Virus record (IMG/VR): IMGVR_UViG_3300043812_000026
Length of the DNA stretch: 64,000 bases
Source of the DNA: a virus
Taxonomy: Duplodnaviria; Caudoviricetes
Direction: 5' to 3' (one strand)
Position 1 is the stretch's first letter. Each line of letters starts with the position of its first letter. The notes beneath the pieces are model-generated. The model saw nothing but the letters and a program-made list of their open reading frames with translations, was not told the DNA's origin and did not search any database. Shown one piece after another: positions 8,481 to 57,997 of the stretch. The position numbers were made by a program, and so were the translations under genes.

Positions 8481-9940
8481 CTGCTATATAAAATGTGAAC
8501 AAACATAATCCTATATGCTAAGTAATTATGTTTGAGAAAGAAATATAGCTTTTCCTTTCTTTATTTTATTTACTGTCGTCAACGCTGGTATTCTCATATC
8601 CTAACTAGAGGGTAATGGCATTGACCAACTATTACAGCTTAAGGGCTTAGCCAGCCCCAATTATATTTTTTTCTTCTTTACGCTAAAGCCAAAAGATTTA
8701 AGACTGCATTTTGGTCTCGATCCATTACCACACCGCATTCATAACAAATATATTCATTGTGTTTAGTACCATGTTTTTGATTACCATCGAGACCAATTTT
8801 ATCTTTGCCTTGCTTGATGTGACCACATGCAGAACAGCGTTGTGTTGATGGATAGAATTGATCAGCTAAGATTAATTCTTTACCATACCATTCACACTTA
8901 TAGGTTAATATTTGTCTAAAATAACCAAACAGTGATCTCTGCATACCTTTAGAAGCTACATGAGTCATCTGCATCTGTTTGACTGCTAAATCTTCAATGA
9001 CAGTCTGGTCATAACTATCAACCAGCTTAGTCGTAAACTTCTGCAAAAGATCATGTTGGATATTAACTACTTTACGATAATCACGTTGCAACTTGGCTCT
9101 CGTTTTAACGTAATTATTACTTTGTGTAGCTAACTTACCATTAACCTTTCTCTTACGAGCTAGCATTTTTTGATAATGCCTGATCCGCTTATAAAGCTTT
9201 TGCAATTTAGCAGGTAAGACGTTAAGCTTCCCATCAGTATAGTTAAAGTGACCTACATTTAGATCTACTGCCGTCTTATTACCAGTTTTAGGTTTCTTAG
9301 CTATTTCAACTTCAAAAGGTAGGCTAGCCCAGTATTTACCATTTTCACGATAAATTGAAACAACTTTTAAATCACCATCTAAAGCCTTAGCACCTTTAAA
9401 ACTAATATCATACCAAGTTTTAACTCTGTGTGGTTTATCAAGTCTTAACTTACCATTAACAATCTTAGCTCTATCAGTTTTAAATCCTTGTCTAGGAGCT
9501 TTCTTAGATTTAAATCTAGGCTTTCCCCAATCAGGTAATGCTTTATTAAAGAACTTCTTCCAAGCATTACCTAAATCAGAAATTGCTAAGTATAAACACC
9601 GTGACGATAAACTATATTGCCAGTCAGCTTTATTAGAGGATAACTCCTTACGGACTCTGCTTTCATTAGGGATAGGATTGTCTTTCTTGTTCAAGTTATG
9701 AGCTTCATACATATCATTCCACAGCTCTAACCCTTGATTCCAACAATATCTACGATAATCGCATAGATCATCAAGAACTTTCTTCATTGTTTGGTTGGGA
9801 TAGAGTCTTACCTTTTGAACTCGAATCATTATTTTCACCACCTTGCATTGACATAATATCTACCTCACATTTTATCTTTCTGTAGATATTATATCATAGG
9901 TGATCGTATTTTAATATCCTTTAATTAACAGTTAATCACC
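8481..9940 (-). mobile_element. Non-autonomous IS607-like tnpB element
   Basis: tnpB followed by a roughly 200-nt structured 3' region ending TATAGCAG|G; no tnpA; left end approximate. Confidence 0.6.
8678..9841 (-). CDS. tnpB: TnpB RNA-guided nuclease
   Basis: RLYPN N-terminus; RuvC D (AVDLN), E (IEDL), D (DRDQNA); CxxC zinc ribbon. Confidence 0.93.
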   Translation of the reverse strand: MVKIMIRVQKVRLYPNQTMKKVLDDLCDYRRYCWNQGLELWNDMYEAHNLNKKDNPIPNESRVRKELSSNKADWQYSLSSRCLYLAISDLGNAWKKFFNKALPDWGKPRFKSKKAPRQGFKTDRAKIVNGKLRLDKPHRVKTWYDISFKGAKALDGDLKVVSIYRENGKYWASLPFEVEIAKKPKTGNKTAVDLNVGHFNYTDGKLNVLPAKLQKLYKRIRHYQKMLARKRKVNGKLATQSNNYVKTRAKLQRDYRKVVNIQHDLLQKFTTKLVDSYDQTVIEDLAVKQMQMTHVASKGMQRSLFGYFRQILTYKCEWYGKELILADQFYPSTQRCSACGHIKQGKDKIGLDGNQKHGTKHNEYICYECGVVMDRDQNAVLNLLALA

Positions 9941-19109: not shown

Positions 19110-20387
19110 TTAGTAACTCAATACCTGTCCGGGGTAAATTAGGTTAGCATTTCTTAAACCATTAGTAGCTACTAAATGATTTACAGAAGTACCTAAATGA
19201 TAAGCAATTGTTGAAAGGTTATCGCCATAACGAACAGTATATGACTTACGTTGTTGTACTTGGGCGTTTCCACTAATCTTTAATACTTGACCGGGGTAAA
19301 TAGTATTGTAAATACTCTTACCATTAATTTGTGCAAGAGTATACATACTCATACCATGATCATTAGCAATCTTCCACCAGCTATCCCCGTAACGAACAGT
19401 GTAGGTTGAAGTTTGTTGAGTATTAGTACTTGGTACTGGTTTTTGCACCTTATTAGAAACAGAATTACCTGCGCCTTTATCAGCTACCCGAAGAACTTGT
19501 CCGGGGTAGATAACAGAATTAATAGTACTTCCATTAAGCTTAGCTAAGGCGTACATATCCATTCCGTGATCATTAGCAATCTTCCACCAGCTATCACCGG
19601 ACTTAACCACATAATTATGGGTATCTTGATGAAGTTGCTTACCTTGTTCCGTTGCTGGAGTTTCTGTCTTAGGCTTCTGAGCATTACCATTAGTATAACC
19701 ATTATCAGTAATACCAGTGAGATCAATATTCCGATCAAGCCCTCCAGCAATTGCTGTTGAAGTATATTGGAACATACCAATATTCTCAAAGCTAGGGAAG
19801 AAGTTATAATTAGGTTCTCTAGTTACGGCGTAGTTTGGATACTCGGCCAACCAGAGTTGGTACTTACTTGCTAAATAATGCAAATCAGTATTGTTTACAA
19901 GGTAATTCTTATAACCATAAACCATTGGAGTATAACCTGCATCTTTAATTCGTTGACAAGCATGGTCAATAGCTTGAGTACTCTGGTAACCTGATTCTAC
20001 GTCTAAAGCAATAATTGAACCTTTAGGTGTTTGTACCTTAGGCAAAAAGTAATTTAATACTTGATCCGCCTGTTGAGTAGTCGTAACATTTTGCCACCAG
20101 ATATAATTATGCGCCCGCTTGCCTTGAGCAATAGCACTTCTTACCTGTGATCCATAAGTCCACTGGTCATAAAGATTCCAACCAGTCGTAGTACCACCCA
20201 TTTGAATAACAGCGAACTTATCATCTGGATAACCAAAGATACCATTAGATCCTTGATACTTGGACCAATCGACACCATGATCCCCCTTGGCCGCCATTAC
20301 AGTTCCAGAGGAAAGAGACATCGTTGCTCCAAGAGTTGCTAAGGCTACTGTTGCAACAGCTAATTTCTTAAAATAATGTTTTCCCAT
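19110..20387 (-). CDS. Endolysin: signal peptide, GH25 muramidase and 3 LysM domains
   Basis: GVDWSKYQG, ALDVE, LWLAEY; three LysM repeats; Sec-type leader starting MGKHYFKK (ATG at 20387). Confidence 0.93.
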   Translation of the reverse strand: MGKHYFKKLAVATVALATLGATMSLSSGTVMAAKGDHGVDWSKYQGSNGIFGYPDDKFAVIQMGGTTTGWNLYDQWTYGSQVRSAIAQGKRAHNYIWWQNVTTTQQADQVLNYFLPKVQTPKGSIIALDVESGYQSTQAIDHACQRIKDAGYTPMVYGYKNYLVNNTDLHYLASKYQLWLAEYPNYAVTREPNYNFFPSFENIGMFQYTSTAIAGGLDRNIDLTGITDNGYTNGNAQKPKTETPATEQGKQLHQDTHNYVVKSGDSWWKIANDHGMDMYALAKLNGSTINSVIYPGQVLRVADKGAGNSVSNKVQKPVPSTNTQQTSTYTVRYGDSWWKIANDHGMSMYTLAQINGKSIYNTIYPGQVLKISGNAQVQQRKSYTVRYGDNLSTIAYHLGTSVNHLVATNGLRNANLIYPGQVLSY

Positions 20388-20519
20388 TGCTAGAGTTAGC
20401 ACTAGGAGAAACTAGGTTACGGCTAGACTATCCTAGTCTAACATTCCAACCTCCTTATATTGAATTAAATACAAGAAATAAGATTGTACAATCTTGTATC
20501 AATATTAATATAAGGAAAT

Positions 20520-20649
20520 AAAAGAAAAACACCCTGCGCTGGAGATACCACAGGATGTTTAACAGAAAATAAGAAAAAGAAGTATAATAATGACTAAACA
20601 CCATTATACAAGGCTAAGAAGAATAAAATGAGAAAGACTTCTTAGCCAA
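20520..20649 (-). ncRNA. Hairpin array antisense to translation initiation regions, ending in a terminator
   Basis: Stems at 20612-20647, 20582-20609 and about 20527-20560; loops contain UUCUCAUUUUAU, UUUAGUCAU and AUCUCC. Confidence 0.65.
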
Positions 20650-20830
20650 TAGCAATTGCAGGAGTCGAACCTACCTAGATAGAAAACAAATAAAATAAAG
20701 GAATTGAAAGGACTTAAGCCGTTTTATGAATATAACTTAGTCTTCTATGTATTACAGCAAAATTATTTTGAAATCCAATTTTAATTGGAAGGAGGTGTTT
20801 ATTAAATTCTACCTATACCATTAAATTGCT
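20650..20830 (-). ncRNA. tRNA-like shell with about 130-nt insert replacing the anticodon loop
   Basis: Acceptor AGCAAUU/AAUUGCU+A; T-arm GUAGG-UUCGACU-CCUGC; stemless D-loop with GG; stem UAGGUAGAA/UUCUAUCUA; insert contains CACCUCCUU. Confidence 0.7.
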
Positions 20831-20834
20831 ACAA

Positions 20835-20908
20835 TGTCCCGAGAGAGACTTGAACTCCCATCAACCGGATTAGAAGTCCGGTGCCTTATCCAATTAGGCT
20901 ATCGAGAC
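20835..20908 (-). tRNA. tRNA-Arg(UCU)
   Basis: Full cloverleaf, acceptor GTCTCGA/TCGGGAC, anticodon loop CT-TCT-AA, TTCAAGT T-loop; CCA not encoded. Confidence 0.93.
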
Positions 20909-21044
20909 AAGTGTGCTAATTGCACACAGCTAAACTTACACGTCCGAACAAAAATTACAAACCAAAAGAAGCTACCATTCAACAAATGTCTAACTCTAAG
21001 AAGGCAGGACCTAGCTATCATCACCCAAAGGTAGCTAAGTCCAA

Positions 21045-21117
21045 TTGCGGAGACAGGACTTGAACCTGTGACCTCCAGATAATGAGTCTGGCGAGCTACC
21101 AACTGCTCCACTCCACG
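21045..21117 (-). tRNA. tRNA-Met(CAU), initiator-like
   Basis: Cloverleaf with C1:A72 mismatch and anticodon CAT. Confidence 0.88.
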
Positions 21118-21175
21118 ATAAGAAAGGATTGGTCATTTGACTGACATTTAATTAATGTATTTAACCAACAATTAT

Positions 21176-21204
21176 ATAATACACCTGTCTTATTAAAAAA
21201 GCAA
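21176..21204 (-). promoter_or_regulatory. sigmaA-type promoter of the tRNA/sRNA operon
   Basis: TTGCTT-17 nt-TATTAT. Confidence 0.6.
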
Positions 21205-22960: not shown

Positions 22961-23293
22961 TTAATTATTATCTTTTTTACTAAGCAAATGTTTGAGAAAT
23001 TCAAGGCTATCGTCTTCGTCTAAGGTGATAACTTCCATATGGTCTTCGTCCTCATCAGTTACTTCACTTTCCGTACTATCGTCATCGGTAAGCGTGATGC
23101 TGATAATATCATTGGCTAATTCTTGTGGGAAATCAGTAGTTGTACAAAGATCGTCAACCGCTACACCAATTGAGAAGATAATGTCTTCAAGTTCAGCTCC
23201 GTCCCAAGTATCACCCATTTTTTCAATTAGTTCTTGTGCCATATCCATAGAGCGTTCGTATTTTGCTTGGTCTTCATTACTAAGTTTAGTCAT
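22961..23293 (-). CDS. Acidic hypothetical protein
   Basis: Early-type leader AAGGAAAGGAAG; very acidic. Confidence 0.8.
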   Translation of the reverse strand: MTKLSNEDQAKYERSMDMAQELIEKMGDTWDGAELEDIIFSIGVAVDDLCTTTDFPQELANDIISITLTDDDSTESEVTDEDEDHMEVITLDEDDSLEFLKHLLSKKDNN

Positions 23294-23354
23294 TATTGTA
23301 ACTTCCTTTCCTTTAATATGTTTTAATTCTAACTTCGATGTTTTTAGAAGTCAA

Positions 23355-23789
23355 TCAGTTTTCAACCTTTTCTTCAATAAAAGAAATATTGCTAAATCCC
23401 TCTAATTTTCTTGCAATTACCTTTAGTAAGTCAACATTTTTAAGTTTATTGCCTTCATTATCAACAAACCCGTTACGTCCTCGCTTAGCTAATAACTTCT
23501 TAGTAGTGAAAGTTTTAATTAAATACTGATTATCAGTTCTAATTAGTATCGACTTATTTTTAGAATGATCATAAGCTTTGAGAACCTGAAAGAAGGATTT
23601 TAGGGATAAACGATCTAAGTCAGAATTATCATCTGCCTTACTAAAATGATCCACAGTCTTACCATGCTTACAAGTATAAGAATAAACACCTCGGTTATTC
23701 TTATTAAAGATTGAAACATCGTATTTTGATGTAGGAACATTACCTGTAAGTAGGGGTAATGTTGAGAATGTGAACTTTTGTCTTGGCAT
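23355..23789 (-). CDS. Degenerate RNase H-fold protein
   Basis: ILIRTDNQYLIK and LKNVDLL match RNase HI motifs; the first catalytic DG motif is not evident. Confidence 0.6.
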   Translation of the reverse strand: MPRQKFTFSTLPLLTGNVPTSKYDVSIFNKNNRGVYSYTCKHGKTVDHFSKADDNSDLDRLSLKSFFQVLKAYDHSKNKSILIRTDNQYLIKTFTTKKLLAKRGRNGFVDNEGNKLKNVDLLKVIARKLEGFSNISFIEEKVEN

Positions 23790-24886
23790 TATAAATTAAT
23801 TCCTTTCTTTTCTTGGTATTCGTCCATAGCTTGATTAACAAGACTATCAACAAAATTATTCCCTTTATTATCTTGATGACTTTCGACTTTATATAAGAAA
23901 ACGTTACTAAATTTCTTTAAATGCTTTAACATACTCAGCCAAAGATCAGCATTCTTAATTTTTTCACCGTTAGGTTTCTTCAAATCATTCTTCGCCCAAG
24001 TGTATAACCAGCTATCGTTAGTCAGAGCTTTAATTACATACTGAGAATCAGTAACAATAATAATTGGTTTATCGTGTAAGTAATGAGCATCTCTTAAAGC
24101 TTGCAAAACCGCTTTTAACTCCATTCGCTGGTTAGTAGTGTTTTGAACCGCCTTATTAAAATTGATAGCGGGACGGTCTGGAATTTGAATCGAATAAGCA
24201 TAAGCGCCAATCTTAGTCTTATTTCTTTTACCACCATCAGTGTAAATTTTAATAGCTTTCTTAGGCAAAAAATCAAGCTGTGATAAAGGAGTAAATCCAT
24301 AGTCAATATGTTTCTTACCTTTTTGGATAATGATAGGATTACCAGATTTACGTTCAACCTTATTTCTAGTAAATTTCTTTCTTAATCTTGCACTAATATG
24401 AGGTCTAATTGTTTTAAGAATTTTCATTAATTCTTGATACACCCTAGGACTAGGATCAACTTCTTTAATAAGAAATCCTTTCTTAAATTGAGAAAGTAAT
24501 TCCCCAACCCTAATTAACATCTTTCTTTCCTTAGGAGTTAATCTAATATCATCTGGGTTAACCTTACCAGTAATCAAGTCTCTTAATTTAGGGTCTTGGA
24601 TTTCAATACAAATAACCTGTCTTTTCTTCATCGTTTGAAGAGCAATAATCAAAGCTCTCATATTAAGGATAAACTGATTAAGATTTTTAACAGCTTTATA
24701 ACCTCGATCAGTCTTACTATTTCCCATAATAAGATAGCCATAGGACACTAATTGAATTGGACCCAAGTCACAGTTTTGATTGTGATAGCTTGTGACTACA
24801 ATTTTATAACTGAAATCACCTTGCTTTAACAACTTAAGATTATTAAGTGATTTAACTGTATTAGATTTTGTTCTCATTTTATTCAT
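23789..24886 (-). CDS. rnhA: Ribonuclease HI with N-terminal extension
   Basis: IYTDGG, TTNQRMEL, VTDSQYV, KNADLW, SH..N..VD. Confidence 0.9.
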   Translation of the reverse strand: MNKMRTKSNTVKSLNNLKLLKQGDFSYKIVVTSYHNQNCDLGPIQLVSYGYLIMGNSKTDRGYKAVKNLNQFILNMRALIIALQTMKKRQVICIEIQDPKLRDLITGKVNPDDIRLTPKERKMLIRVGELLSQFKKGFLIKEVDPSPRVYQELMKILKTIRPHISARLRKKFTRNKVERKSGNPIIIQKGKKHIDYGFTPLSQLDFLPKKAIKIYTDGGKRNKTKIGAYAYSIQIPDRPAINFNKAVQNTTNQRMELKAVLQALRDAHYLHDKPIIIVTDSQYVIKALTNDSWLYTWAKNDLKKPNGEKIKNADLWLSMLKHLKKFSNVFLYKVESHQDNKGNNFVDSLVNQAMDEYQEKKGINL

Positions 24887-25369
24887 CTCTTCATAGTTTT
24901 ATTCATATGTATTAGCTAACTTGTATTAAGTAACGCTATGTATGAATTATAACTTCATCTTGCTTAGAAGTAAATCCTTATTTCAAACTTTCTTACTACC
25001 CTATCTTTTTCTTCTCTTCTTTATCCTTACTCTATATCTAGTCTTTATCTCTATCTTATGTCTTACTTATTATTACTCTATCTTATTACCTTATACCTTA
25101 CTTACTTACTTCCTAAGTTTAAATACTAGATAATAAGATAAGATTAATAAGAACTAACTTTAACTCAGACTATCTAACCCTAGCTTATTACACTTAAAAG
25201 AAACAACAAAACAAAACAGCACCCCCTAATATGCAGTCAATTCTCTAGTAATAAATCTACTCTAGTTATTGATATTACAGTATTAGAGAGGTATGTCATA
25301 TGATTTGTTAAGTTTTAATTCTAATATAATTAGATCAAGTAAGGCTATCACTAATTAGCGAGAATAAAG

Positions 25370-30237: not shown

Positions 30238-30376
30238 TAGATAGCAAAAATAAAAGGCTACATAAAAGAGTCAAGAGTCTATATTTTATTCATAATCGGT
30301 ATAAAGTACGTGACTAAAGTAATATATTTTAATTAAAGTATGTTATAATTTAAATAACAACTAAAAATAATAGTTG

Positions 30377-30433
30377 CTAAATACTACTAAGGTAGTTTAT
30401 AGAATCTAAGCTATTCATGACTGAGTAGTTCAC
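30377..30433 (+). mobile_element. Degenerate IS605-type right end / omegaRNA remnant
   Basis: CTAAATACTAC...AGAA..ATTCATGACTGAGTAGTTCAC matches 42524-42578. Confidence 0.65.
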
Positions 30434-30440
30434 CTTAGTT

Positions 30441-30518
30441 GCAGGAATTAGTTCAATCGGTAGAACCTCGGAGCGTTTTCTCGTTCCACCAACATCAGTT
30501 CAATTCTGATATTCCTGC
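30441..30518 (+). ncRNA. Pseudo-tRNA with aberrant anticodon arm
   Basis: Intact acceptor, D-arm and T-arm; GGAGCG-TTTTCT-CGTTCC arm has no canonical 7-nt loop. Confidence 0.7.
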
Positions 30519-30643
30519 TTATAGCCCACATACCATTTACAAAATTACCTAAACGTATGTTCAATGTGGGCTAGAAGTGCTGGAAGTTTAGTGACACTTT
30601 TCGTGGGGCACTATAATATTACTGGCTGGAAATAAGTGTTAAT

Positions 30644-30729
30644 TGGGTAATACTTCAGTGGCAGAATGATTGGGATAGCTATGTTAAATAATTAAGCCCA
30701 AGACGAAGGTTCGATTCCTTTCTTACCCA
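30644..30729 (+). ncRNA. Pseudo-tRNA with expanded anticodon loop
   Basis: TGGGTAA/TTACCCA acceptor, GAAGG-TTCGATT-CCTTT T-arm, TTGGG/CCCAA stem enclosing 22 nt. Confidence 0.7.
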
Positions 30730-30749
30730 CTAGCTTGATAAGGTAGCTC

Positions 30750-31290
30750 CTTGTTAATCTAAATCAGTAACTAGTTGCTGATATTAATGGCGTAGAGTAA
30801 GCAGTTGATGACTGTAGGCTCATGCGAACAGTACAGTAAACACGCCGGGAACATGAATTAGTTGAGGCTAAGTGTGGGATCGGCGAAAAGGTAGCCCAGT
30901 TAATCGAGGGTAAAAGTGTGCGACTTTGCATAGTGTCTGGCACGAATACCTCATCCAGACGTTAAAAAGACAGTAAGAGTAGGCTTGGCAACCTATTACC
31001 TAGTGAGCAATGCGGAAATGCTAAGTACGATGCAAAACCTAGGGGAAGTTAAGGTCTCGAACGATGGTCTCCCGTGAGATTGAGAGTTCGAGTCTCTCTA
31101 GGACCGTACCCCGTGTTCATTAGGGCGCTTTATTTTCGTCTTCGGACTCCTTCTAGTTACAGGTCTAGTAGGTAAAAGATATACACAATAGGAAGTCAAC
31201 CTGTATGAGTGTTATATCTGTAAGTAAAGTATTAGGGTGCAAGTCCCTACGGGGTGGTAGGAGTGTATCTTCCGTCCTACCATTATGGTA
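30750..31290 (+). ncRNA. Large ornate ncRNA, candidate ROOL/GOLLD-type
   Basis: About 540-nt GC-enriched, ORF-free stretch between tRNA shells; long-range ACCCCGT/ACGGGGT; T-loop-like GGGTGCAAGTCCC; embedded tRNA-like 31053-31105. Family not verified. Confidence 0.6.
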
Positions 31291-31465
31291 TATGTAAACA
31301 AGAACCGTGTTTAGGCTTTTATTACGAGAATTAAAAGCCCTTTTCTTCTCAGTTCTTGAAGTAAGAACGAGATAGGGGTTAGTTAACTGTTACTCACCCT
31401 ATCTAAAATAATAACGAGTATAAATGCAATTGCTGGGATATACTGTGAATGTTCTAAGCAGTATA

Positions 31466-31524
31466 AGGGTAGTAGTTCAATGGTAGATCATGCAAGGACG
31501 GGGGTTCGATTCCTTCCTACCCTA
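31466..31524 (+). ncRNA. tRNA shell lacking the anticodon arm
   Basis: AGGGTAG/CTACCCT acceptor, D-arm, GGGGG-TTCGATT-CCTTC T-arm; only about 10 nt between D and T arms. Confidence 0.7.
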
Positions 31525-31598
31525 TTTTCTTTATTACGTATTTAGTTCTCCCCTAACTATGGTATAATTAATACATATCAAAGTTAGGGGAGTTTTAA

Positions 31599-32063
31599 TT
31601 GATCAAAGTTTTTGCAATTATTTTACTGCTAGTTTGGCTGATTAGTTTTGGTTTATATGATTTAAAGTCGCTTTTTAAAAGAATTGCTTATCCATTTAAA
31701 CAGCTTGATGAAGAAGATCATGATAATTTCGGTATCTTAGATGATACTTACAATTTATCGACTTTCAAGGGTCGAGTATACTTGTTATTAACTAGCTGGG
31801 TACTTGAAATTATAGTGTTCTTTCTCTTATGGGGTTTAGCTCATGTAGCAGGAATCGGACAAGAATTAAAAGGTACTTTGTTATTATTCTTAACAGTTGG
31901 ATGCCTTTCAGATCTGAATACTAATTATTATCGAGTTAATTACTATTTAAATGGTACTAAAGATTATATAGGTTGTTATCTAGGAATTATAATCGGCTTA
32001 TTCTTATGCTACTTATATGGGGTACTGATTCAACAAGTAGTTACATTGGCAATATTAAATTAA
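31599..32063 (+). CDS. Membrane protein
   Basis: Four hydrophobic segments; GGGGAG RBS. Confidence 0.8.
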   Translation: MIKVFAIILLLVWLISFGLYDLKSLFKRIAYPFKQLDEEDHDNFGILDDTYNLSTFKGRVYLLLTSWVLEIIVFFLLWGLAHVAGIGQELKGTLLLFLTVGCLSDLNTNYYRVNYYLNGTKDYIGCYLGIIIGLFLCYLYGVLIQQVVTLAILN

Positions 32064-42594: not shown

Positions 42595-42852
42595 AGATAT
42601 GTTAACGAATCTGATTTTAACAAGTTGTACCTAGCATAAAGGCGTTCCTATTTTATTACAAGTTTAATATGGGATTATCTTACGTCCAGCTAGAAATTAC
42701 AGCTAATCGCATAAAACAGTTCCTATTTAAAATTGACTCGAAATCAACCTACAGTTTACTGTTAGCGATTAATGAAAGTTCCTTATAGCGGGTACATAGC
42801 GTGCACAGCCCGTTGTAGGGAACTTTTTACATACAAGAAAGGAAGTATAATA

Positions 42853-44946
42853 ATGAAAAACTTTTCATATGCTATGTTAAATTCAATTAATGACGTAACT
42901 ATTCGCTTATTTAAGGGAGTAGATATGGATATTCAGGGGGATAAGGTTTCCCGTTCTGCTACAGAAGTTCAAAAAATGGCTAGAAACGCTATGAGTTACG
43001 GGCTTATGTTTGATACTGAAATCCTAAAGTCTGTTTCCGTAATGGCATTAAAAGATATTTTCAATACAGCAAAAAAATATTACGGAATTAGTAATAGTAT
43101 GGTTAATTCAACCTTCTTCCAGACTTTAGATCAGAATATTAATACTCCTACTTATATGCGAATGTATATGCAGGCTCTTAACTACTTGCAAACATATGGT
43201 GGAGTTAATGTAACTAGTCACGAAACTGTTCAGTTTGGCTCTAATCGGCAATTAGACGATAGTATTAAATTAGATTTACAACAAAACTTTACAGTCATTT
43301 CTGCTTTTACAACCGAAGAATTAAATCAAAAGGTTCAGTCTTTACTTTACAGTGGTATGGCTTTAGAATCTAAAGCTGTTGAGGATTTAATTTACTTAAT
43401 TAGTAAACTGAATCTAAAAATTGAAATTAGTAAAGTTAAGAACCGTGAAGCTATGATTAAGCTTAGCAAGGAGTTAGAGCTTTATCCAGCAAATCCAGAT
43501 ATGTTTATGAATTACATTTACAGTTTAGTTACTGGTGATACAATGCTGGTAAAGAACGATCAAGCTTACCTTAAATTTAATGATATGCTCCTTGATTCTA
43601 ATTCTACTAATGACTTTGTTTATTCATTAATGCACGAATATGACAGTAACCATTCAACGCCTTCACTAAGATCATTAGTTAATCGTTACCACAAGATGTT
43701 CTTAATCCTACGTAAGAATGCTCCTTCAAGAGAAGAAAGACGTTTCTACAATCGTATCATGCGTCAAGGTAAGAATACTAAGAAAAATTACCGTCAAAAA
43801 GGTATTTTAGATCAGTTGCCAGAATACATTAAAGGTGAAGTATCTTTTACTGAAAAGCAGATTTTAGGTGCTTTATCTAATGCTAGTACCTATAAATTAG
43901 CTCGTATTTATACTTATCTAGTTAACCTAAATAAGAAAGATAAGAATGGATCGCTATATCGAATCCGTAACGGTAAGTCTTATTATGTATCTGGTAAGGA
44001 AGACCTCGATGATATTTTTAACTCATTTATCTCCTTTAAGAATGTTGCTGATAATAAAGTGATTAAGGATTTAGTTTCTAAGATTGTAGATGAGCTTCTC
44101 CAGCGGGGACAAAATGCTTTTGCTGATAACGATAATAAAACTGTTTACTATATTCCGGGTGGGCTATATTATAGCATTCCTACCTCTGGTAAGCAGTTTA
44201 CTGGTAATATTCCAGATTACACTAGCTTTGACTTCCAATTGACTGGTGACGAACGACTTGGTGTAGGTATCCACTGGGACAAGCAAGCAGATCTCGACTT
44301 ACACGCTGTTACCTTAGATGGTGATACCTTTGGTTGGAATACTGATTGGTTGGACGATGATAGTAAGGTTGTCTATTCTGGTGATATGACACGTTTAGAT
44401 GATAGTGGAAATGCTAGTGAAATTATGTCCCTTTCTAAGGACTTAGATAAACCAGTCTTATTATCTGTATCTCCATACTATGTTGACGGGGGCTACAAAG
44501 ATTTCAACTTTGACTTATTTGTAACTCGTTTTAATCAAGGAAAACTTAGTTCAGATTTAAACTCAACGCCTGAGGTTTATGTTAAAAGTATCTCCAAAGA
44601 TGCTTTTAACATTAATAAGTTATCCTTTAAGAATCAAAGTACCATGACTCTAGGGGTGATTATTCCTCGTGGGGACGGAAAATTTAGCTTTGTAATTACT
44701 AATTTTAATTTCGGTGCAGTACACGTCCCAAACCAAGATCAGAATAAGCAATTATTAAGCTACCTCAATGATTATACTGAAAATGTTCCGCTCTTAAATA
44801 ATATTCTCGGTGGTAAGTTAGTTGATGATAAAGACTTATTACCACACTACACAGAACAAGGTTACAAGGTAGTGGACTTATCGCCAGCCAATGTAACTGT
44901 TGATACTTTCACTGATTTAATTGATGAGTTAGATGAAAACAAATAG
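42853..44946 (+). CDS. Large conserved phage protein with TerD-like C-terminal motif
   Basis: GIHW..DLDLHA..GWN..YSGDMT; RBS AAAGGAAG supports ATG 42853 rather than 42772. Confidence 0.7.
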   Translation: MKNFSYAMLNSINDVTIRLFKGVDMDIQGDKVSRSATEVQKMARNAMSYGLMFDTEILKSVSVMALKDIFNTAKKYYGISNSMVNSTFFQTLDQNINTPTYMRMYMQALNYLQTYGGVNVTSHETVQFGSNRQLDDSIKLDLQQNFTVISAFTTEELNQKVQSLLYSGMALESKAVEDLIYLISKLNLKIEISKVKNREAMIKLSKELELYPANPDMFMNYIYSLVTGDTMLVKNDQAYLKFNDMLLDSNSTNDFVYSLMHEYDSNHSTPSLRSLVNRYHKMFLILRKNAPSREERRFYNRIMRQGKNTKKNYRQKGILDQLPEYIKGEVSFTEKQILGALSNASTYKLARIYTYLVNLNKKDKNGSLYRIRNGKSYYVSGKEDLDDIFNSFISFKNVADNKVIKDLVSKIVDELLQRGQNAFADNDNKTVYYIPGGLYYSIPTSGKQFTGNIPDYTSFDFQLTGDERLGVGIHWDKQADLDLHAVTLDGDTFGWNTDWLDDDSKVVYSGDMTRLDDSGNASEIMSLSKDLDKPVLLSVSPYYVDGGYKDFNFDLFVTRFNQGKLSSDLNSTPEVYVKSISKDAFNINKLSFKNQSTMTLGVIIPRGDGKFSFVITNFNFGAVHVPNQDQNKQLLSYLNDYTENVPLLNNILGGKLVDDKDLLPHYTEQGYKVVDLSPANVTVDTFTDLIDELDENK

Positions 44947-50346: not shown

Positions 50347-50719
50347 CTATAGTGAATAACATATTAGAGACCAAAAATTTTATTATTAGATTTTGGTCTT
50401 TTTTGTTTTGCTTCCTTTTCTAAATTCCAGTTAGGTAAAAAGACGGGGGTGTACTAGAGGCAAGATAAAGATATAGATAGGGGTAAAACAAGGACATTAA
50501 TAGAGATAAAGATAGCTGTTCATGAATCGGGTGAACAGCAGAATTTCTAGTATAAAAATTTTTTGGGCTGGGGAATAGAGAACCTAGCCTTTTGTGAACC
50601 TAGCCTTCAAGATTAACGGGGGTGTGGTCTCAACCGTATTAACTAGACCCGAAGACTAGAAAACCTATTTAGCAAAATAAAAAAGCCCCTTCGGTAAAAA
50701 GTACCAAAGAAGCTAATAG

Positions 50720-50932
50720 TTAGATTAGGTTAAATTTTAATTTTAGGAATAAGACAATCAACAATAAACCAGCACCAGCAAAGCTTACTAGTATAGTGCA
50801 GACACCAGTGCAAGCCGTTGAGTATTCAATTCCGAGTAGTTTAGAAGTAGCCTTACAAGTTAGCTCCAGCAAGCTAATTAAAGCATTAGCAAGCAAATAG
50901 AATAAGTTATAAACACTAATTAATAAAGTCAT
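50720..50932 (-). CDS. Early small membrane protein
   Basis: RBS supports the MTLLIS start. Confidence 0.65.
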   Translation of the reverse strand: MTLLISVYNLFYLLANALISLLELTCKATSKLLGIEYSTACTGVCTILVSFAGAGLLLIVLFLKLKFNLI

Positions 50933-51278
50933 GATAAAACTTCCTTTTTCTTTATTTCTTATTACATTATTATAATACAATAAGCATTTTATATTGTCAA
51001 TACATAATCATAAAATAAAAGGTTAATTATCATATAGCCTTAATTGCTTGTATAAGGCTTTCTAAGACGTTTTATGATAGTTAGGTGTAATTAATCATTA
51101 AAGCAATAAGACAAGCACAGACAAGCAAACAGACTAAAATAATAATAAACTGAGTTAAATAGATAAGAATAAAGGGGATGATTTATAATAATGTTGCAAA
51201 TGCAACAATCCATCCCCTGCATAGATAAGACTGATAATAAAGCAAAAATAAAAAGGACTTATGAAAAGCCCTTGAATA

Positions 51279-51707
51279 TTATTTAAATCCTAATTGGTCG
51301 TTAATGTAGTTCACAATGCTATCTGCTTGCGGGTCGGTTAAGTCTTCTTCAATATCAATATCAAACTCATCACTTAAATCATTTAACACGCATTCTATGT
51401 TAATATATGCAACCATATTAGCAACCTTTTTAGGGTCGCTTAAATCTGTATTAACTAATCCAAATTGTTCAGTTTCATAACTCTTGACGTACTCAATAGC
51501 ACCAAAGACACCGTTTAAATTAGTGCTTGCATAAAGCTGATCTTCCTCACTAAACTCTTCTAATGCTTGTGAAGCCTTATATGTTCCAATAATCCATAAA
51601 TTGTTGCTAGTAGTATTCATTTGAATATCTTCAAGTGAATTGCTTCCGTTTTCTAATGCATCCGCAATAGTTGATAACATAGTGTTGTAGTTAAATTCTT
51701 CAGTCAT
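51279..51707 (-). CDS. Early acidic protein
   Basis: Own promoter/RBS cassette. Confidence 0.85.
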   Translation of the reverse strand: MTEEFNYNTMLSTIADALENGSNSLEDIQMNTTSNNLWIIGTYKASQALEEFSEEDQLYASTNLNGVFGAIEYVKSYETEQFGLVNTDLSDPKKVANMVAYINIECVLNDLSDEFDIDIEEDLTDPQADSIVNYINDQLGFK

Positions 51708-51794
51708 AATAATTACTTCCTTTTCTTTATTTATCTTACATTATAATAATAACATTGTTAGTTATTATTGTCAATAAAAAATTTAACTTTTTAT

Positions 51795-52124
51795 TTATAC
51801 AATAGCTGGAAAGTCTTTACCAGTTACGTAGTTTTCTAGCTTGTCGCCTTGATAGTTGGCTGAAAATTGCTTTGCAAATTCCTTTTCGTGACGGCTAGTA
51901 GTAGCGCTATAAATACCATTAGATAAAAACTTTCCATCTGGTAAAATGCAAGCTACGACCACATTATAAGATAATAGCAACTTTACACCATTTACCAGGC
52001 TTTTGACCTTGGCTTTACCATAGAATGATTTTCGGCTATCATAACGGGGGTTCAAATCTTCCCAATTAGTAGCGCTTTGAGCATTGAGCAATTCATTTAA
52101 GTTATAAGCAAATTTCTTCATCAT
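51795..52124 (-). CDS. Early hypothetical protein
   Basis: Cassette; SFYGKA..LLSY..YSATTSRH motif. Confidence 0.85.
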   Translation of the reverse strand: MMKKFAYNLNELLNAQSATNWEDLNPRYDSRKSFYGKAKVKSLVNGVKLLLSYNVVVACILPDGKFLSNGIYSATTSRHEKEFAKQFSANYQGDKLENYVTGKDFPAIV

Positions 52125-52195
52125 TTTAATAACTTCCCTTCATTTGATTACATTATAATAATAACATTGTTGGTTATTATTGTCAATAGTTTTAT

Positions 52196-52504
52196 TTAAT
52201 TTTGTTGTAATTCTTCCCACGTAGACTCATCATCGTAATAATCAACAGTCCCCTCAATGTAATTATCGATTTCCTTATCTTCGCCCCCGTTTTCCCAATA
52301 ATGATCAAATTGTTCTTGAGTCCAATTTAAGTCATACATATAATAATCAATAGCGGATTCATACACTACTTCTGACAATCCAGTGTTAGCGATGACAAGT
52401 TCTTTTTCTTCTTTACCCCGTTTCATTGTTAAAATAGCTTCACCGTAAGTTGTTTCAATAAGACTAACTAATTCAGTTTTTACCTTGTCTGTTAATTTTT
52501 CCAT
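52196..52504 (-). CDS. Early acidic protein
   Basis: Cassette. Confidence 0.85.
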   Translation of the reverse strand: MEKLTDKVKTELVSLIETTYGEAILTMKRGKEEKELVIANTGLSEVVYESAIDYYMYDLNWTQEQFDHYWENGGEDKEIDNYIEGTVDYYDDESTWEELQQN

Positions 52505-52593
52505 TTTTATTACTTCCTTTTCTTATTACATTATAATAATAACATTGTTAGTTATTATTGTCAATAGTTTATTTAAATTTTTATCTGGTCTGA

Positions 52594-52848
52594 TTATTTT
52601 AGTTTGTTAAATTCTTCAATTCTATCAATTCTATTAATTAGTTTGATAACTAAATTATTAGTGATTCCATTGGCTTGTAACTGTTCCTGCTCCTTTGGTG
52701 TAAGCAATTGCCAACTATCGTTAACAATTAGATTTTGTGGAAAAATGTTAGCATTATCATGTACAGTCTGTAAACTGATACTAGCATTAGTTGCTTCCCT
52801 TACCTTGTTAGCTAAATCATTCAGAACATTTTTAATATCATTAGTCAT
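52594..52848 (-). CDS. Early protein, paralog of 56031
   Basis: VNDSWQLLTPKEQEQ vs VNNSWQLMTPREQEE. Confidence 0.85.
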   Translation of the reverse strand: MTNDIKNVLNDLANKVREATNASISLQTVHDNANIFPQNLIVNDSWQLLTPKEQEQLQANGITNNLVIKLINRIDRIEEFNKLK

Positions 52849-53991
52849 TTTTATAACTCCCTTTCTTTATTACATTATAATAATAACATTGTTGGTTTAG
52901 ATTGTCAATAGTTTTTCTAAATAATTAAGAGTTTAAGCTTAACTCTCAAAATAAATCCTTGTTTCTTATTACACTTTTATAATAGCATACTTTTAACATA
53001 ATGCAAGCCCTAATTTTAATTTTTATTGATTGATTTTAGCAATTATAGCACCTACTAGATAAACAATAACTAGAATAGCCCTAATTTTCCATGTAAGCTA
53101 TTCTGAGGCGTTTTATCATTGTTTAGGTATAATCTATCATTAAAGAATAAAAATGAATTATACGGGGTTATATAAAGAAATAGGGCTATAGGATAATCAA
53201 GTTTCTTTTTTCTAAATAAGTATTGACAATGAAGCCTAATAATGTTATTATAATAATGAAAGGTAAATAGAACAAGCCCAGATAGCTGGTAAGGGAAACC
53301 GTTTTGGTTGTTGTTAGCTAGATATGTTTAGAGTAATCCGTACTTTTTTAAAAATCAATTGTCTACTTCCCTAATCATATACATCCACCGTATAGCCCTA
53401 ATTAATCCAAGGCTATATTCTGTTCTCAATGTTACAGTCCATATTATTCAGTTGTTTAATTAGTTTGTTTTTATCCTTATCACTTCCCTTCCTTAACTTT
53501 CAATTATATTATATCATTATGTAATCGTATTGTCAACACATTTATAGAATTAATTGGATCGATCCACTTATTAATAATGCTATTATATCAGTCTTCACGG
53601 GGCTTTTTTAACTCTAAAATTTATCAGTTGTTAAAATATTTTTATTAATTTATTTATACATTTTTGGTTCCATTCTGTTTTGATTAGTCTTTAATTAGTT
53701 TACTTTGCCTTTAATTAGTCCTTTATTGTTTGAATATTGTTATGTATTAGTCCTATATAGCTAATATTATGCTTGTTTTAGGCTTTATTAGTCTAATTAA
53801 GGCTTTTTATCCTCTTTTATTGGCTTTTATAAGGCTTTTTTATTGTTTTTAATTAGTGAAAATCATCACTAATTACTCTTGTTATGCTTATCTTTTATAT
53901 ATAAAATTAAAAGGGTGAAAACTCGTTAAACGTTGATATTACAACATTCTCAGTTTTTACCCTTGCTTGTGAATTGTTTAATTTATTCCCT

Positions 53992-54312
53992 TTACCGGAA
54001 AAGCTTATACTCTTCAACTAGTTTTTGCTTTAATTCAAAGATAACACTAGCTAGTCTATCGCTTAAATCCTTATATTCTGCATTATCATAGCTTAACAGA
54101 ATTGAGTCAAGGCGGTGTAATTCCTTATAGTATATACTATCAATATAATGAAGTGTATTATCCTTTACTAGTGCAATATCGCCCACGCCTAAACTCTTGT
54201 AATTCTGATTCATGTAATAGTTATTACTATCTTTAAAATAGCTTACTTTTATTTTGTCTTTATTACCATTAATACTAACAGTAACTTCTTTTTGTTCTAG
54301 TCCTTTTTTCAT
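53992..54312 (-). CDS. Early hypothetical protein
   Basis: AAGGAAGGAAG RBS. Confidence 0.8.
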   Translation of the reverse strand: MKKGLEQKEVTVSINGNKDKIKVSYFKDSNNYYMNQNYKSLGVGDIALVKDNTLHYIDSIYYKELHRLDSILLSYDNAEYKDLSDRLASVIFELKQKLVEEYKLFR

Positions 54313-54534
54313 TGTGATACTTCCTTCCTTATCTTTTAATTATATTATATCATATTGTATTTACTTTGTAAAGATACAATTTTAAGATTATTTTATACCA
54401 CAACAACCGCAAGAAGTCAAGGCTTTTACTGGGTAAAGTTATAAAGTTAGGTTTGTCTAAATTATGTTGTATTTGCAACAATTTTTTAATCTATTATTTG
54501 ACTTTTACAACAAAAGAAGGTAGGGCTGAATATA

Positions 54535-54582
54535 TTGTTTTATTCTGCTTACTTGTTTTATTCTGCTTACTTGTTTTATTCT
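54535..54582. repeat. Short tandem repeat
   Basis: TTGTTTTATTCTGCTTAC, about 2.7 copies. Confidence 0.8.
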
Positions 54583-54606
54583 TTGATATAAAAAAAAGAA
54601 GGTAAA

Positions 54607-54789
54607 CTAATCACCTTCTTTAATTACTTTATATACAATTGAATTTTTTTCTAGCTCATCCAATCCTACTAGATACTTATAGTTAGGGTTAATATTAATT
54701 ACTTGATAATTTTTATCAAAATAGCAATTATCACCTTGTGAATTTTGAAAATCAATCATATCTTTACCCGTCATTACAATAGGCTCCAT
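54607..54789 (-). CDS. Early hypothetical protein
   Basis: AAGGAG RBS. Confidence 0.75.
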   Translation of the reverse strand: MEPIVMTGKDMIDFQNSQGDNCYFDKNYQVININPNYKYLVGLDELEKNSIVYKVIKEGD

Positions 54790-54804
54790 TTTAATTGCTC
54801 CTTA

Positions 54805-55122
54805 TTAATAATCATATTCTGAACGGCGTAAACCTAAATAATAACACTTACCATCTTCAGCTTTACCAAATGATTTGTAAAGATAACTTTCTGGGTCGTC
54901 ATCATCCGTTGTATAAGCTTCACCCATGCAAAATGTTTGAATGAACTTGATACCTAACTGATTTTCTAAAATTTTTTTCGTTGCTTTTTCTAATGGATAA
55001 GGTGGCAAAACTTCATACATTTCAGAATAGATTTCATAGTCAACTTCTTGAAATAACTTTGGATTTAATTCACCAGTTGCTTCATTATTCCAATCTTCCA
55101 TAGTATATACATTATTAGTCAT
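54805..55122 (-). CDS. Early hypothetical protein
   Basis: Cassette; VLPP..FCMGEAY motif. Confidence 0.85.
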   Translation of the reverse strand: MTNNVYTMEDWNNEATGELNPKLFQEVDYEIYSEMYEVLPPYPLEKATKKILENQLGIKFIQTFCMGEAYTTDDDDPESYLYKSFGKAEDGKCYYLGLRRSEYDY

Positions 55123-55199
55123 AATTATAACTCCCTTTCTTTATTACATTATTATAATAACATTGTTTTGTTATATTGTCAATAGATTAAATTAAAAAA

Positions 55200-55511
55200 T
55201 TAAATATGTTCGATAATATTATCATAGTCAAATTCTTGTAATAAATAACGGTTTAAATCTTTCATAAAATAAGTAACTTTCATTTTACCCTCTTTTTCTA
55301 GTTGGTTGTTTTCTAGGTCAAAAAATCCAAAATCACCAGTTATAAGATTAACAACTTGAATATCACCATAATAGTTAACAATCATTCCAAAGTAGACTTG
55401 ATTTTTATTATTAACAAATAGTCGAGAATTACTATCAAAATTATCAAAATCCAAATCTTCAGCAATTCCACACGCTTGATTAAGGTTGTTCATATATGTT
55501 TCAATAATCAT
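55200..55511 (-). CDS. Early hypothetical protein
   Basis: Cassette. Confidence 0.85.
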   Translation of the reverse strand: MIIETYMNNLNQACGIAEDLDFDNFDSNSRLFVNNKNQVYFGMIVNYYGDIQVVNLITGDFGFFDLENNQLEKEGKMKVTYFMKDLNRYLLQEFDYDNIIEHI

Positions 55512-55647
55512 TTTTATTACTTCCTTTTCTTATTCTTATTAATAAAGTCTAAACACGTAAAAGTTTAAGCTCAACTCTTGAAATAATCCTTGTTCCTTAT
55601 TACATTATTATAATAACATTATTGTGTTATATTGTCAATAGATAATA

Positions 55648-56001
55648 TTAAAAAATTGAATAAGGTTTGAAATAAATACCTGCAGGCGTTTGTTTATAAC
55701 TTTTTAATTCTTGTTGAATAGGTAAAGGGTAATCGTTGAACAAGTCTTTAATAGCATTCTCACCATTAACCAATAAATACTCTTCTTGTAGCGTATCTTC
55801 TGGATAATAGCCTAATTCTAGCTTATTAGCTAATTCATTAAGGTTAGTACTTGACCCTTCAACGTTGCCTTCCCAATCAGTTAAAACGTGTTCATAAGTA
55901 ACTGAATAAAGTTCTGCATTTTTGTAGTCATTAGCCTTTGAATAAACAAAATGCTTGTAAAAACGGGAATCACCATACTCTGGTAGTTTGTAGATTTTCA
56001 T
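55648..56001 (-). CDS. Early hypothetical protein
   Basis: Conserved leader. Confidence 0.85.
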   Translation of the reverse strand: MKIYKLPEYGDSRFYKHFVYSKANDYKNAELYSVTYEHVLTDWEGNVEGSSTNLNELANKLELGYYPEDTLQEEYLLVNGENAIKDLFNDYPLPIQQELKSYKQTPAGIYFKPYSIF

Positions 56002-56030
56002 TTTTATAACTTCCTTTTCTTATTTTAATA

Positions 56031-56303
56031 TTATGCTTCTAATCGATTAATCCGATCAGCTAATTTTTTAGCTAACTCCCAGCTTGAACCGCAAAGCAGA
56101 ACTTCTTCTTGTTCCCGTGGGGTCATTAATTGCCACGAGTTATTGACTACGAGAACGTGTTCAACAATGTTAACAGGGTCATCAATTGCTTTATAGTCAA
56201 TCATCGCCCGTACCTTAAGATAGCGGGAAACCATACCAGCCAATTCATGGAATTTGTCGCAAGCGTAAATATTGACTTCTTGTTGTTCAGTTAAACGTTT
56301 CAT
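56031..56303 (-). CDS. Early protein, paralog of 52594
   Basis: RBS supports the MKRLTE start at 56303. Confidence 0.85.
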   Translation of the reverse strand: MKRLTEQQEVNIYACDKFHELAGMVSRYLKVRAMIDYKAIDDPVNIVEHVLVVNNSWQLMTPREQEEVLLCGSSWELAKKLADRINRLEA

Positions 56304-56475
56304 TTTGATAACTTCCTTTTCCTTATTACAATTATATAATAACATTGTTAGTTATTATTGTCAACCCTTTTTCTAAATAATTAAGAGTTTAAGCTCAACT
56401 CTTGAAATAATCCTTGTTCCTTATTACACTTTTATAATAACATTATTGTGTTATATTGTCAATACTAATTACATA

Positions 56476-56934
56476 TTATTTTTTGGGAATTTTAAAATCC
56501 TTGTCTTTTAAGAATTTCAAAGAATTATACATATTATACGAGTGTCCGTATTCTCTTTGATTTGTTAGTAAATCAATAAATATGTTATTAATAAAAATGT
56601 AGTTATCAAAAACAGTTAACATCCTTTTATAGCGGGGTTGCCAAACTAATAAGCAACTTGAAAAGTTAGGGGCGTAAATTCTAATGGTATCAATTTTAAT
56701 TACTTGCTTTAATTCATAATCTAACGCCTTGAATGTAATTAGATTAGTTTCTGAATCTGGTTTTGTGTAGTCATCCATGTTAATCATATATGAACGGTAA
56801 AAACTATACATAGATTTAGGCTTGTTTTGCGGTTTGATTTTGAAAAAATCTTTTAAGGTTAACACAATCCAGTCAACCCCCTTTATCTTCTTACCCACAA
56901 TGGTGTCATAATTGTTACAAAAATAATTATCCAC
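56476..56934 (-). CDS. Early hypothetical protein
   Basis: ORF; start uncertain. Confidence 0.65.
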   Translation of the reverse strand: MDNYFCNNYDTIVGKKIKGVDWIVLTLKDFFKIKPQNKPKSMYSFYRSYMINMDDYTKPDSETNLITFKALDYELKQVIKIDTIRIYAPNFSSCLLVWQPRYKRMLTVFDNYIFINNIFIDLLTNQREYGHSYNMYNSLKFLKDKDFKIPKK

Positions 56935-57080
56935 CAGTTAGCAGGGTCAAGCATAGATAACACGATAATAGGAGTAACAAGCACCAGTAAACAGATAATA
57001 ATTATTTTTTTGATCTTTTTATAAGATTCTGGAATCTGTTTATCACGTACATAATTACGGCGGTTGTCCCTTTCATTCAT
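56883..57080 (-). CDS. Early small membrane protein
   Basis: G-run RBS before MNERD; two hydrophobic segments. Confidence 0.7.
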   Translation of the reverse strand: MNERDNRRNYVRDKQIPESYKKIKKIIIICLLVLVTPIIVLSMLDPANWWIIIFVTIMTPLWVRR

Positions 57081-57096
57081 AATTGCCCCCCCCCTT

Positions 57097-57387
57097 TTAT
57101 CTACTCTCAATTAATGCTTCAACCGTGTTAAGGCTATCAGTAATTACTTGACTAACTTTTTCTAATTCCTTATTAGTAGGATTGTTACGGTTAATCAATA
57201 GCTTGTGTGTACCACTGTTATTAGTCGTGTAGATTAATACATCGTTTTTGTCGGTGCTATCATAGTCAAAAAGCCAATTGCCTTCATAATAAACGTTCAA
57301 TAAATCAAGGTCGATTGTAATATCATCGCCTTCAAGCACAAAGTCTACAAGTTCCATGATTTTATTAGTTAATTCCACATTAGTCAT
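57097..57387 (-). CDS. Early hypothetical protein
   Basis: Cassette. Confidence 0.85.
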   Translation of the reverse strand: MTNVELTNKIMELVDFVLEGDDITIDLDLLNVYYEGNWLFDYDSTDKNDVLIYTTNNSGTHKLLINRNNPTNKELEKVSQVITDSLNTVEALIESR

Positions 57388-57454
57388 TTTGATTACTTCC
57401 TTTTCTTTATCTTACATCATTATAATAACATTGTTGGTTAGTATTGTCAATAGA

Positions 57455-57862: not shown

Positions 57863-57997
57863 TTTAATATACTTCCTTTTCTTATTAAATTTACAGTCTA
57901 AACACTTAAGAGTTTAAGCTCAACTCTTGAAATAAATCCTTGTTCCTTATTACATTATTATAATAACATTGCTAGTTATTATTGTCAATAGATAATG

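Follow-up and report, generated by a model that had tools for sequence, protein, structure and literature searches.

A 64,000-nucleotide stretch of viral DNA (IMG/VR record IMGVR_UViG_3300043812_000026; Duplodnaviria, Caudoviricetes), referred to in its entirety as the window, carries on its minus strand a short tRNA operon that ends in a structured 3' trailer (20649-20520), and the RNA of this trailer is complementary to the translation start regions of a family of phage genes. The trailer comprises about 125 nucleotides (nt) at the 3' end of the operon, on the tRNA strand, between a tRNA-like element and a predicted intrinsic terminator. The window has a GC content of 33% and looks, from its sequence, like part of a large Lactobacillus-type phage; some stretches are held in common with Lactobacillus phages, and the DNA polymerase is only ~35% identical to that of Staphylococcus Twort-like Herelleviridae. 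Its genes run leftward from 1 to 25 kb, rightward from 25 to 50 kb, and leftward again from 50.5 to 64 kb.

The nearest database relatives were metagenomic contigs. We compared the locus with ten of them, falling into two clades and consisting of five IMG/VR contigs and five other loci from metagenome or SRA assemblies. Homologues of the neighbouring protein P0001 were present in all relatives with 83-97% identity, while tblastn of P0001 against the phage collection gave no match, so that no known phage is close, and the protein database held no relatives of intermediate distance. Neutral divergence among the relatives, measured at 4-fold sites, was only 3-12%. One complete related genome of 152,691 bp (G002) served as a replicate. 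G002 (L043-L050) has just the two tRNAs of this operon genome-wide, and its first 40 nt are present again at 53,672 and at the terminal overlap (152,641).

The operon is preceded by a putative sigma-70-like promoter (Table 1), which was read by eye from the sequence and was not listed by a simple promoter scan; it is kept in 10 relatives, and an alternative -10 element (TATAAT/TAGAAT) lies at 21176-21171. The tRNA-Met is initiator-like in carrying a C1:A72 mismatch, a hallmark of bacterial initiator tRNA, and its sequence shows 0-1 differences across 10 relatives. Its anticodon stem is without the three G-C pairs, and position 33 is C, not U, in L003-L006, the closest relatives of the window. 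Spacer 1 is the least conserved part of the operon, with 32-37 differences in 145 columns between clades. The tRNA-Arg alleles differ at up to 16 of 77 positions among near-identical phages, with compensatory changes in the T stem and almost invariant flanks, which suggests cassette-like replacement via recombination; a plus-strand open reading frame (ORF) antisense to tRNA-Arg was ruled out, as indels among relatives break the frame.

Behind tRNA-Arg lies the tRNA-like element, in which a perfect 7-bp acceptor stem is retained and the anticodon arm is replaced by an insert of ~100-140 nt. ARAGORN with default settings made no call and no Rfam tRNA model matched, so that the element is not a canonical tRNA. 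With a relaxed score and the intron option, the only setting under which ARAGORN called it, the calls were inconsistent: Stop(tta) in the window, Thr(agt) in L003 and none in four other relatives. Rfam searches gave no group I intron, tmRNA or Y-RNA-like match in the element and, over the whole region at E-values up to 10, nothing besides the two tRNAs. A 44-nt hairpin insertion in the element sets L003-L006 apart. All three tRNA-type elements are without an encoded CCA and have UU directly after them, which is the look of RNase Z substrates in Firmicute tRNA maturation, and processing by RNase Z would be expected from their sequences. The tRNA-like element is a probable handle for RNase Z/RNase P.

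Table 1. Features of the tRNA operon, its trailer and the principal predicted targets.
Feature	Coordinates	Strand	Description
Sigma-70-like promoter (putative)	21171-21204	-	-35 TTGCTT (21204-21199), 17-nt spacer, -10 TATTAT (21181-21176)
Operon 5' leader	21118-21165	-	Complement holds start-site mimic AAGAAAGGA..TTGACT
tRNA-Met (CAU)	21045-21117	-	Rfam tRNA model, 58.9 bits, and ARAGORN; no encoded CCA
Spacer 1	20909-21044	-	134 nt; two hairpins, GGACTTAGCTA..TAGCTAGGTCC and GTGTGC..GCACAC
tRNA-Arg (UCU)	20835-20908	-	Rfam tRNA model, 67.6 bits, and ARAGORN; no encoded CCA
tRNA-like element	20650-20830	-	Begins 2 nt after tRNA-Arg; 7-bp acceptor stem AGCAATT/AATTGCT, T arm GTAGG-TTCGACT-CCTGC, discriminator A
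Trailer hairpin 2	20612-20647	-	10-bp stem, 16-nt loop (20637-20622)
Trailer hairpin 3	20582-20609	-	11 bp; loop UUUAGU and 3' arm CAUUAUUAUAC complementary to the leader-family AUG and codons 2-3
CU-rich linker	20562-20581	-	20 nt; antisense to the 5' untranslated region/Shine-Dalgarno sequence of the leader family, AAUAAGAAAAGGAAG
Intrinsic terminator	20520-20559	-	~12-bp stem, then UUUUUCUUUU
Target 1	24862-24895	-	Start region of the first leftward-block gene; product of 362 amino acids, C-terminal RNase H domain
Target 2	23282-23325	-	Leader, Shine-Dalgarno sequence and AUG of gene 22961-23293; strongest of the individual duplexes, -31.2 kcal/mol
Target 3	42826-42862	+	Leader, Shine-Dalgarno sequence and AUG of gene 42853-44946
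Early-type small-gene cassettes	50720-58440	-	Most with a TTGACA-17-TATAAT promoter directly before the shared leader; main predicted targets

At least 17 genes of the window share a leader consisting of AATAAGAAAAGGAAGT, a gap of 7-9 nt and ATG, often with ACT as the next codon, and about 20 genes carry it in G002; the shared early leader named in the preliminary description of this DNA is thus real. In the cassettes at 50.7-58.4 kb the leader would be the entire short 5' untranslated region (5'UTR), because it starts right after the TTGACA-17-TATAAT promoter. The plus strand of the trailer holds a full-length copy of this leader (20565-20599) that takes in the start codon plus codons 2-3; a single change affects the core of the Shine-Dalgarno (SD) sequence (GGAAG to AGAAG). 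The copy was found in both relatives searched, and the likeness is confined to the transcribed leader and start, cassette promoters and coding sequence not being included. The RNA of the tRNA strand, in which the linker and hairpin 3 together form the anti-leader (20599-20565), is accordingly antisense to the family. Three exact matches over start codons that had been reported for the operon were recovered: 20579-20593 is a direct repeat of 42842-42856, in a plus-strand gene, 20586-20599 is the reverse complement of 23284-23297, and 20621-20634 that of 24871-24884, both in minus-strand genes. From these orientations and the strands of the three genes, it follows that RNA transcribed from the minus strand over 20520-21160 is antisense to each of the three mRNAs. 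Exact antisense matches of at least 14 nt to start sites numbered three in these 0.64 kb compared with ~4 in the other 63 kb.

A profile built from 16 leaders (nhmmer) recovered all gene starts and, beyond those, only plus-strand positions 20567-20597 at E<0.1 (E 0.05), so that the trailer was the sole non-gene, antisense-oriented match in the window; in G002 it was again the only antisense-oriented match with E<5 (E 0.64). When positions 20564-20611 were paired with 88 start regions, the mean duplex energy of the top ten was -27.5 kcal/mol, whereas dinucleotide shuffles gave -18.7 ± 1.2 (0 of 40 reaching the observed value) and coding-region controls -17.1. The replicate, using the operon of G002 and its 182 start regions, gave -30.8 against -21.4 ± 1.4 for shuffles (0/20). 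Scanned as a partner of four representative leaders, the trailer ranked 1st among 7,994 48-nt sense-strand RNA windows over 64 kb, its energy of -28.6 lying ~9 standard deviations off the mean (-8.7, standard deviation 2.2). A sequence-homology test agreed, the trailer alone beating shuffles with scores of 44 versus 31 ± 4 in the window and 43 versus 31 ± 3 in G002. Cofolding of the whole folded trailer with folded targets predicted a net gain of -12 to -20.5 kcal/mol for 16 family members (the median was -5.6). The predicted duplexes are 30-35 nt long and involve at least 16 start regions, so that the trailer offers an accessible region complementary to both SD and AUG.

These results bear on the explanation that chance and composition alone are at work, a pyrimidine-rich trailer being bound to complement purine-rich SD leaders in a genome of 33% GC. 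By our own estimate, a comparison of 640 nt with 128 kb should give ~1.3 exact 14-mers, and the nhmmer E-values are just 0.05 and 0.64. The second-best anti-leader locus, a CU tract at ~50396-50420 after the terminator of the rightward block, reaches -24 kcal/mol, which implies that composition alone can carry the score far. The match of this tract is limited to the SD core, however, whereas that of the trailer extends over 33-35 nt through the spacer, the AUG and codons 2-3, and a second, independent start-region homology adjoins it. Because dinucleotide-preserving shuffles never reached the observed energies in either genome, we regard chance as a very improbable explanation.

The predicted structure of the trailer is consistent with exposure of the anti-leader. 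On the minus strand it folds into three hairpins and a 20-nt CU-rich single strand at -42.2 kcal/mol (z -9.8), and the CU-rich linker, which is the anti-SD tract, is unpaired in the minimum free energy, centroid and consensus folds. As modelled, the combination of hairpins, a single-stranded anti-SD tract and a terminator is the standard architecture of a base-pairing small RNA (sRNA). Among the 7 distinct trailer sequences, substitutions in stems preserve pairs through G.U or a double change: in hairpin 3 a G.U becomes A-U between clades with the pair kept, and variants of the terminator stem retain pairing as C-G/U.G/U-A and U.G/C-G. In L018, hairpin 2 has lost one closing pair.

Strand preference bears on the alternative that the plus strand is the functional one. 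In that case, if the plus strand were transcribed antisense to the tRNA operon, the leader-type start would drive a 13-codon micro-ORF (20590-20631, MTKHHYTRLRRIK) that shares an ATGA overlap with a 5-codon ORF from 20628. The leader copy is correctly spaced to the ATG, ATGA overlaps are typical of translational coupling, and the frame is kept in all relatives, with three of five substitutions synonymous at third positions, a proportion that is not significant. A promoter-like TTAACA-18-TATAAT is also present on the plus strand, but it would start transcription downstream of the ATG, and no other plus-strand promoter or gene occurs within the 25-kb minus-strand block. The SD core of the copy is weakened; RNA of the plus strand folds at -28.8 kcal/mol, 13 kcal/mol worse than the minus-strand RNA; the wobble pairs created by stem substitutions form in minus-strand RNA only and become A.C mismatches on the plus strand; and the hairpin with its U tract is a minus-strand terminator. 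Taken together, we give a functional micro-ORF very little credence.

Next to the anti-leader, the loop of hairpin 2 matches a different start region. It corresponds to GAATAAAATGAGAA in the start region of the first leftward gene, a match that most relatives share, with the exact 14-mer at 24871-24884 lying on the second ATG; this ATG (24877) is the likelier start of the RNase H-fusion gene because it has proper SD spacing. GAATAAAATGAGAA heads the first leftward gene in the relatives having the region, despite differing upstream sequence, and the coding sequence after "MR" exists in two unrelated versions. The match between loop and target extends to 16 nt in L006 and L015, and L013 has a single target change that is G.U-compatible with the loop. 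Over plus-strand positions 20605-20642 and the L006-type start region, we counted 31 identities in 38 positions with two small indels, which points to homology and not convergence. By duplex energy, the pairing of the hairpin-2 loop alone is not significant (15 of 40 shuffles reach it). The first leftward gene (23789-24877) is a single 362-amino-acid ORF, while in L013, L015 and L017 a gene of ~190 amino acids precedes separate RNase H genes; two unrelated versions of the N-terminal part of the first leftward gene exist behind identical first 17 nt. To judge by the sequences, the trailer resembles an antisense RNA gene that was put together from two start regions in inverted copy, with each copy cut to about -25 to +12 and held in a hairpin.

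Several findings weigh against a trans-acting role for such an RNA, in addition to the CU tract and the conserved micro-ORF frame described above. The anti-leader meets the SD core through G.U wobble, not G-C. No compensatory change between guide and target was seen among the relatives, whose closeness (3-12%) leaves too little room for the guide-target covariation proposed earlier as a check; a clade-B change in the loop of hairpin 3 from UUUAGU to UUUGGU (A to G) is not mirrored in the targets and is merely tolerated as G.U. The trailer differs from its relatives at 0-7 of 128 columns, weakly below the expectation from 4-fold sites (p 0.01-0.18), the weakness being due to the closeness of the relatives. 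In G002, the hairpin-2 loop is unchanged with no target within two mismatches. The leader also heads genes in the replication and structural regions, so that the family is not purely early, and a simple early shut-off is therefore uncertain and just one possible regulatory logic among others.

Such findings lend weight to the possibility that the trailer is transcribed but that its start-like content is recombination debris, the hairpins serving only as a 3' stabiliser or terminator with no role in trans. Leaders repeated on both strands are ample substrate for rearrangement, and the G to A change in the SD core, conservation only marginally above neutral, the lack of covariation with targets and the missing hairpin-2 target in G002 would all fit. 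Debris would not readily account, however, for two different, equally oriented start fragments (about -25 to +12) lying next to each other, each with an acquired complementary half-stem, nor for an anti-SD tract that stays single-stranded amid stem changes that preserve structure, nor for the fact that no other segment of the 64 kb is as good an antisense partner of the leaders. We consider debris unlikely, though a contender to be taken seriously.

The other non-tRNA segments of the operon behave differently from the trailer. The preliminary description had portrayed an array punctuated by tRNAs in which most non-tRNA segments are antisense to start sites and which silences early/middle phage genes and perhaps host or competitor-phage genes. 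The operon contains only two tRNAs and one tRNA-like element, and three of the four segments pair with start regions at the level of shuffles in both the window and G002: shuffles reached the observed duplex energy in 8/40 and 7/20 cases for the 5' leader, 6/40 and 3/8 for spacer 1, and 4/40 and 3/8 for the tRNA-like insert, respectively. By duplex energy and local alignment in two genomes, these three segments were thus ruled out statistically as guides. The shuffle comparison suggested at the outset therefore came out in favour of the trailer (0/40, 0/20) and not of the rest; four unlike segments, three of them without excess complementarity, do not make a repeat-spacer guide array.

The insert of the tRNA-like element speaks for a wider array. 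Its CACCUCCUUCC, unpaired in the predicted fold and invariant in 11 of 11 sequences, matches the core of the 16S rRNA 3' end exactly, and the complement of the insert is a perfect SD plus ATG AAA in 8/11 relatives. The plus strand of the insert reads SD plus ATG AAA TTC in these 8/11, with MKFYLYH and a stop in five of them. Start-site-like strings likewise occur on the plus strand of each segment, as would be expected if the 5' leader, spacer 1, insert and trailer were all released, some of them against host or competitor-phage starts. Against this stand the shuffle-level pairing of three segments, the poor conservation of spacer 1 and the loss of the ATG of the insert mimic in the window and L007. 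Host targets for the SD-plus-ATG mimic did not emerge either, an exact search across prokaryotes, with one genome for each species, yielding just two unrelated matches in metagenome-assembled genomes. No comparable signal was present in the Lactobacillus Herelleviridae phage LP65, where none of 252 tRNA-cluster spacer windows was an outlier against 73 start regions. For the entire operon, a multi-guide array is not demonstrated, and we hold that reading to be highly unlikely; what endures of the shut-off array first envisaged is its 3' trailer module, on the strength of both sequence and structure.

We therefore return to the trailer as a trans-acting anti-leader sRNA derived from a tRNA trailer, which would shut off translation; on the sequence evidence we put this somewhat short of an even chance. 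We infer transcription, processing, timing and repression as follows. The operon would be transcribed from the promoter at ~21200, and tRNA-processing enzymes would cut the CCA-less tRNA-like element, with RNase Z cleaving after the discriminator A at 20650 and the terminator setting the 3' end of the RNA. The CU-rich linker of the released RNA, together with the loop and 3' arm of hairpin 3, would then pair over ~30-35 nt with the 5'UTR, SD and AUG of leader-family mRNAs, mostly from the early-type cassettes at 50.7-58.4 kb. This pairing would occlude binding of the 30S subunit, and such long duplexes are of the kind cut by RNase III. The 16-nt loop of hairpin 2 may additionally pair with the start of the RNase H-fusion gene. 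In a broader version, the whole operon would be a module that reprograms translation initiation through RNAs released by tRNA enzymes, made up of an initiator-like tRNA-Met, a tRNA-shaped anti-SD carrier and the anti-leader trailer; we view this broader version as rather improbable.

If the anti-leader sRNA is real, the trailer would cover its targets from their 5' ends up to the start codon and silence a whole mRNA family, so that a lytic-type phage would turn off ~17-20 of its own mRNAs with one RNA that is a by-product of tRNA processing. It would represent a trans-acting, multi-target antisense regulator for Gram-positive phages, in which, to our knowledge, few sRNAs have been characterised, and would give a concrete role to the unexplained non-tRNA RNAs of phage tRNA clusters.

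Other features of the window were recorded alongside. Downstream of the operon, the endolysin ATG (20387, minus strand) has no SD; about 55 nt upstream of it lie a strong AAGGAGG, a mini-ORF ATG TTA GAC TAG (20444-20433) and a CTAG-rich structured spacer, and the presumed lysin promoter holds a perfect 16-nt palindrome, AAGATTGTACAATCTT (20480-20495). These features (20385-20500) are nearly invariant in relatives. Translational bypass in the lysin leader was considered, but no landing codon matching the GAC take-off codon was seen. The terminator of the rightward block (50360-50425, plus strand) is followed by GCTTCCTTTTCT, of which 11 of 12 bases are exactly complementary to the leader core AGAAAAGGAAG, a complementarity that may be purely compositional; the region 50.38-50.72 kb contains no obvious ORF. 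A second non-coding cluster (30300-31600, plus strand) includes a 59-nt match to the Rfam tRNA model at 31466-31524, for which ARAGORN makes no call, and just downstream of it CTCCCCTAAC can pair with the GTTAGGGGAG SD region of gene 31599. At 8579-8637 on the minus strand, Rfam 'Transposase-1 RNA' matches with 62 bits, above its gathering score.

Among the closest known systems is 3'ETS-leuZ, an sRNA from the 3' trailer of the E. coli glyW-cysT-leuZ tRNA operon that associates with Hfq and sponges other sRNAs. Like it, the candidate would be a base-pairing trailer of a tRNA operon; it occupies the stretch from the last tRNA-type element to the operon terminator, at which it would end; 3'ETS-leuZ is freed by tRNA 3' processing, as the candidate would be. 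Unlike this bacterial RNA, the candidate is phage-encoded, stands behind a tRNA-like element and is complementary to mRNA start regions. The c4 antisense RNA of phages P1 and P7 is cut from its precursor by RNase P, and its loops pair with a phage ribosome-binding region. It resembles the candidate as a phage antisense RNA with exposed sequences against ribosome-binding regions and with excision by a tRNA enzyme, which is proposed for the candidate. Its single target, icd-ant, belongs to the same operon of a temperate phage, whereas the candidate would act in trans on ~17-20 starts in a large lytic-type phage, and the two have no sequence or structural homology. In the tRNA-microRNA units of murine gammaherpesvirus 68 and in MALAT1/mascRNA, a tRNA-like fold acts as a tRNase Z handle for the adjoining RNA; the analogy is architectural only, as those systems use RNA polymerase III or nuclear processing and the microRNA machinery in animal cells. 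The T4 proteins RegB and RegA inactivate phage mRNAs at SD or initiation regions, RegB acting on early mRNAs (PMC3014915), and offer a precedent for early shut-off by the same logic of start-site-directed mRNA inactivation, with proteins as effectors where the candidate would employ RNA. The lambda sRNA PreS/LPR1 is trans-acting, Hfq-dependent and directed mainly at host targets (bioRxiv 10.1101/2024.10.31.621285); it is, like the candidate, a phage base-pairing sRNA with a single-stranded seed and, unlike it, is not linked to a tRNA. Collectively, the candidate is not categorically new but extends two known kinds of regulator, the antisense RNAs of phages and the sRNAs derived from tRNA trailers.

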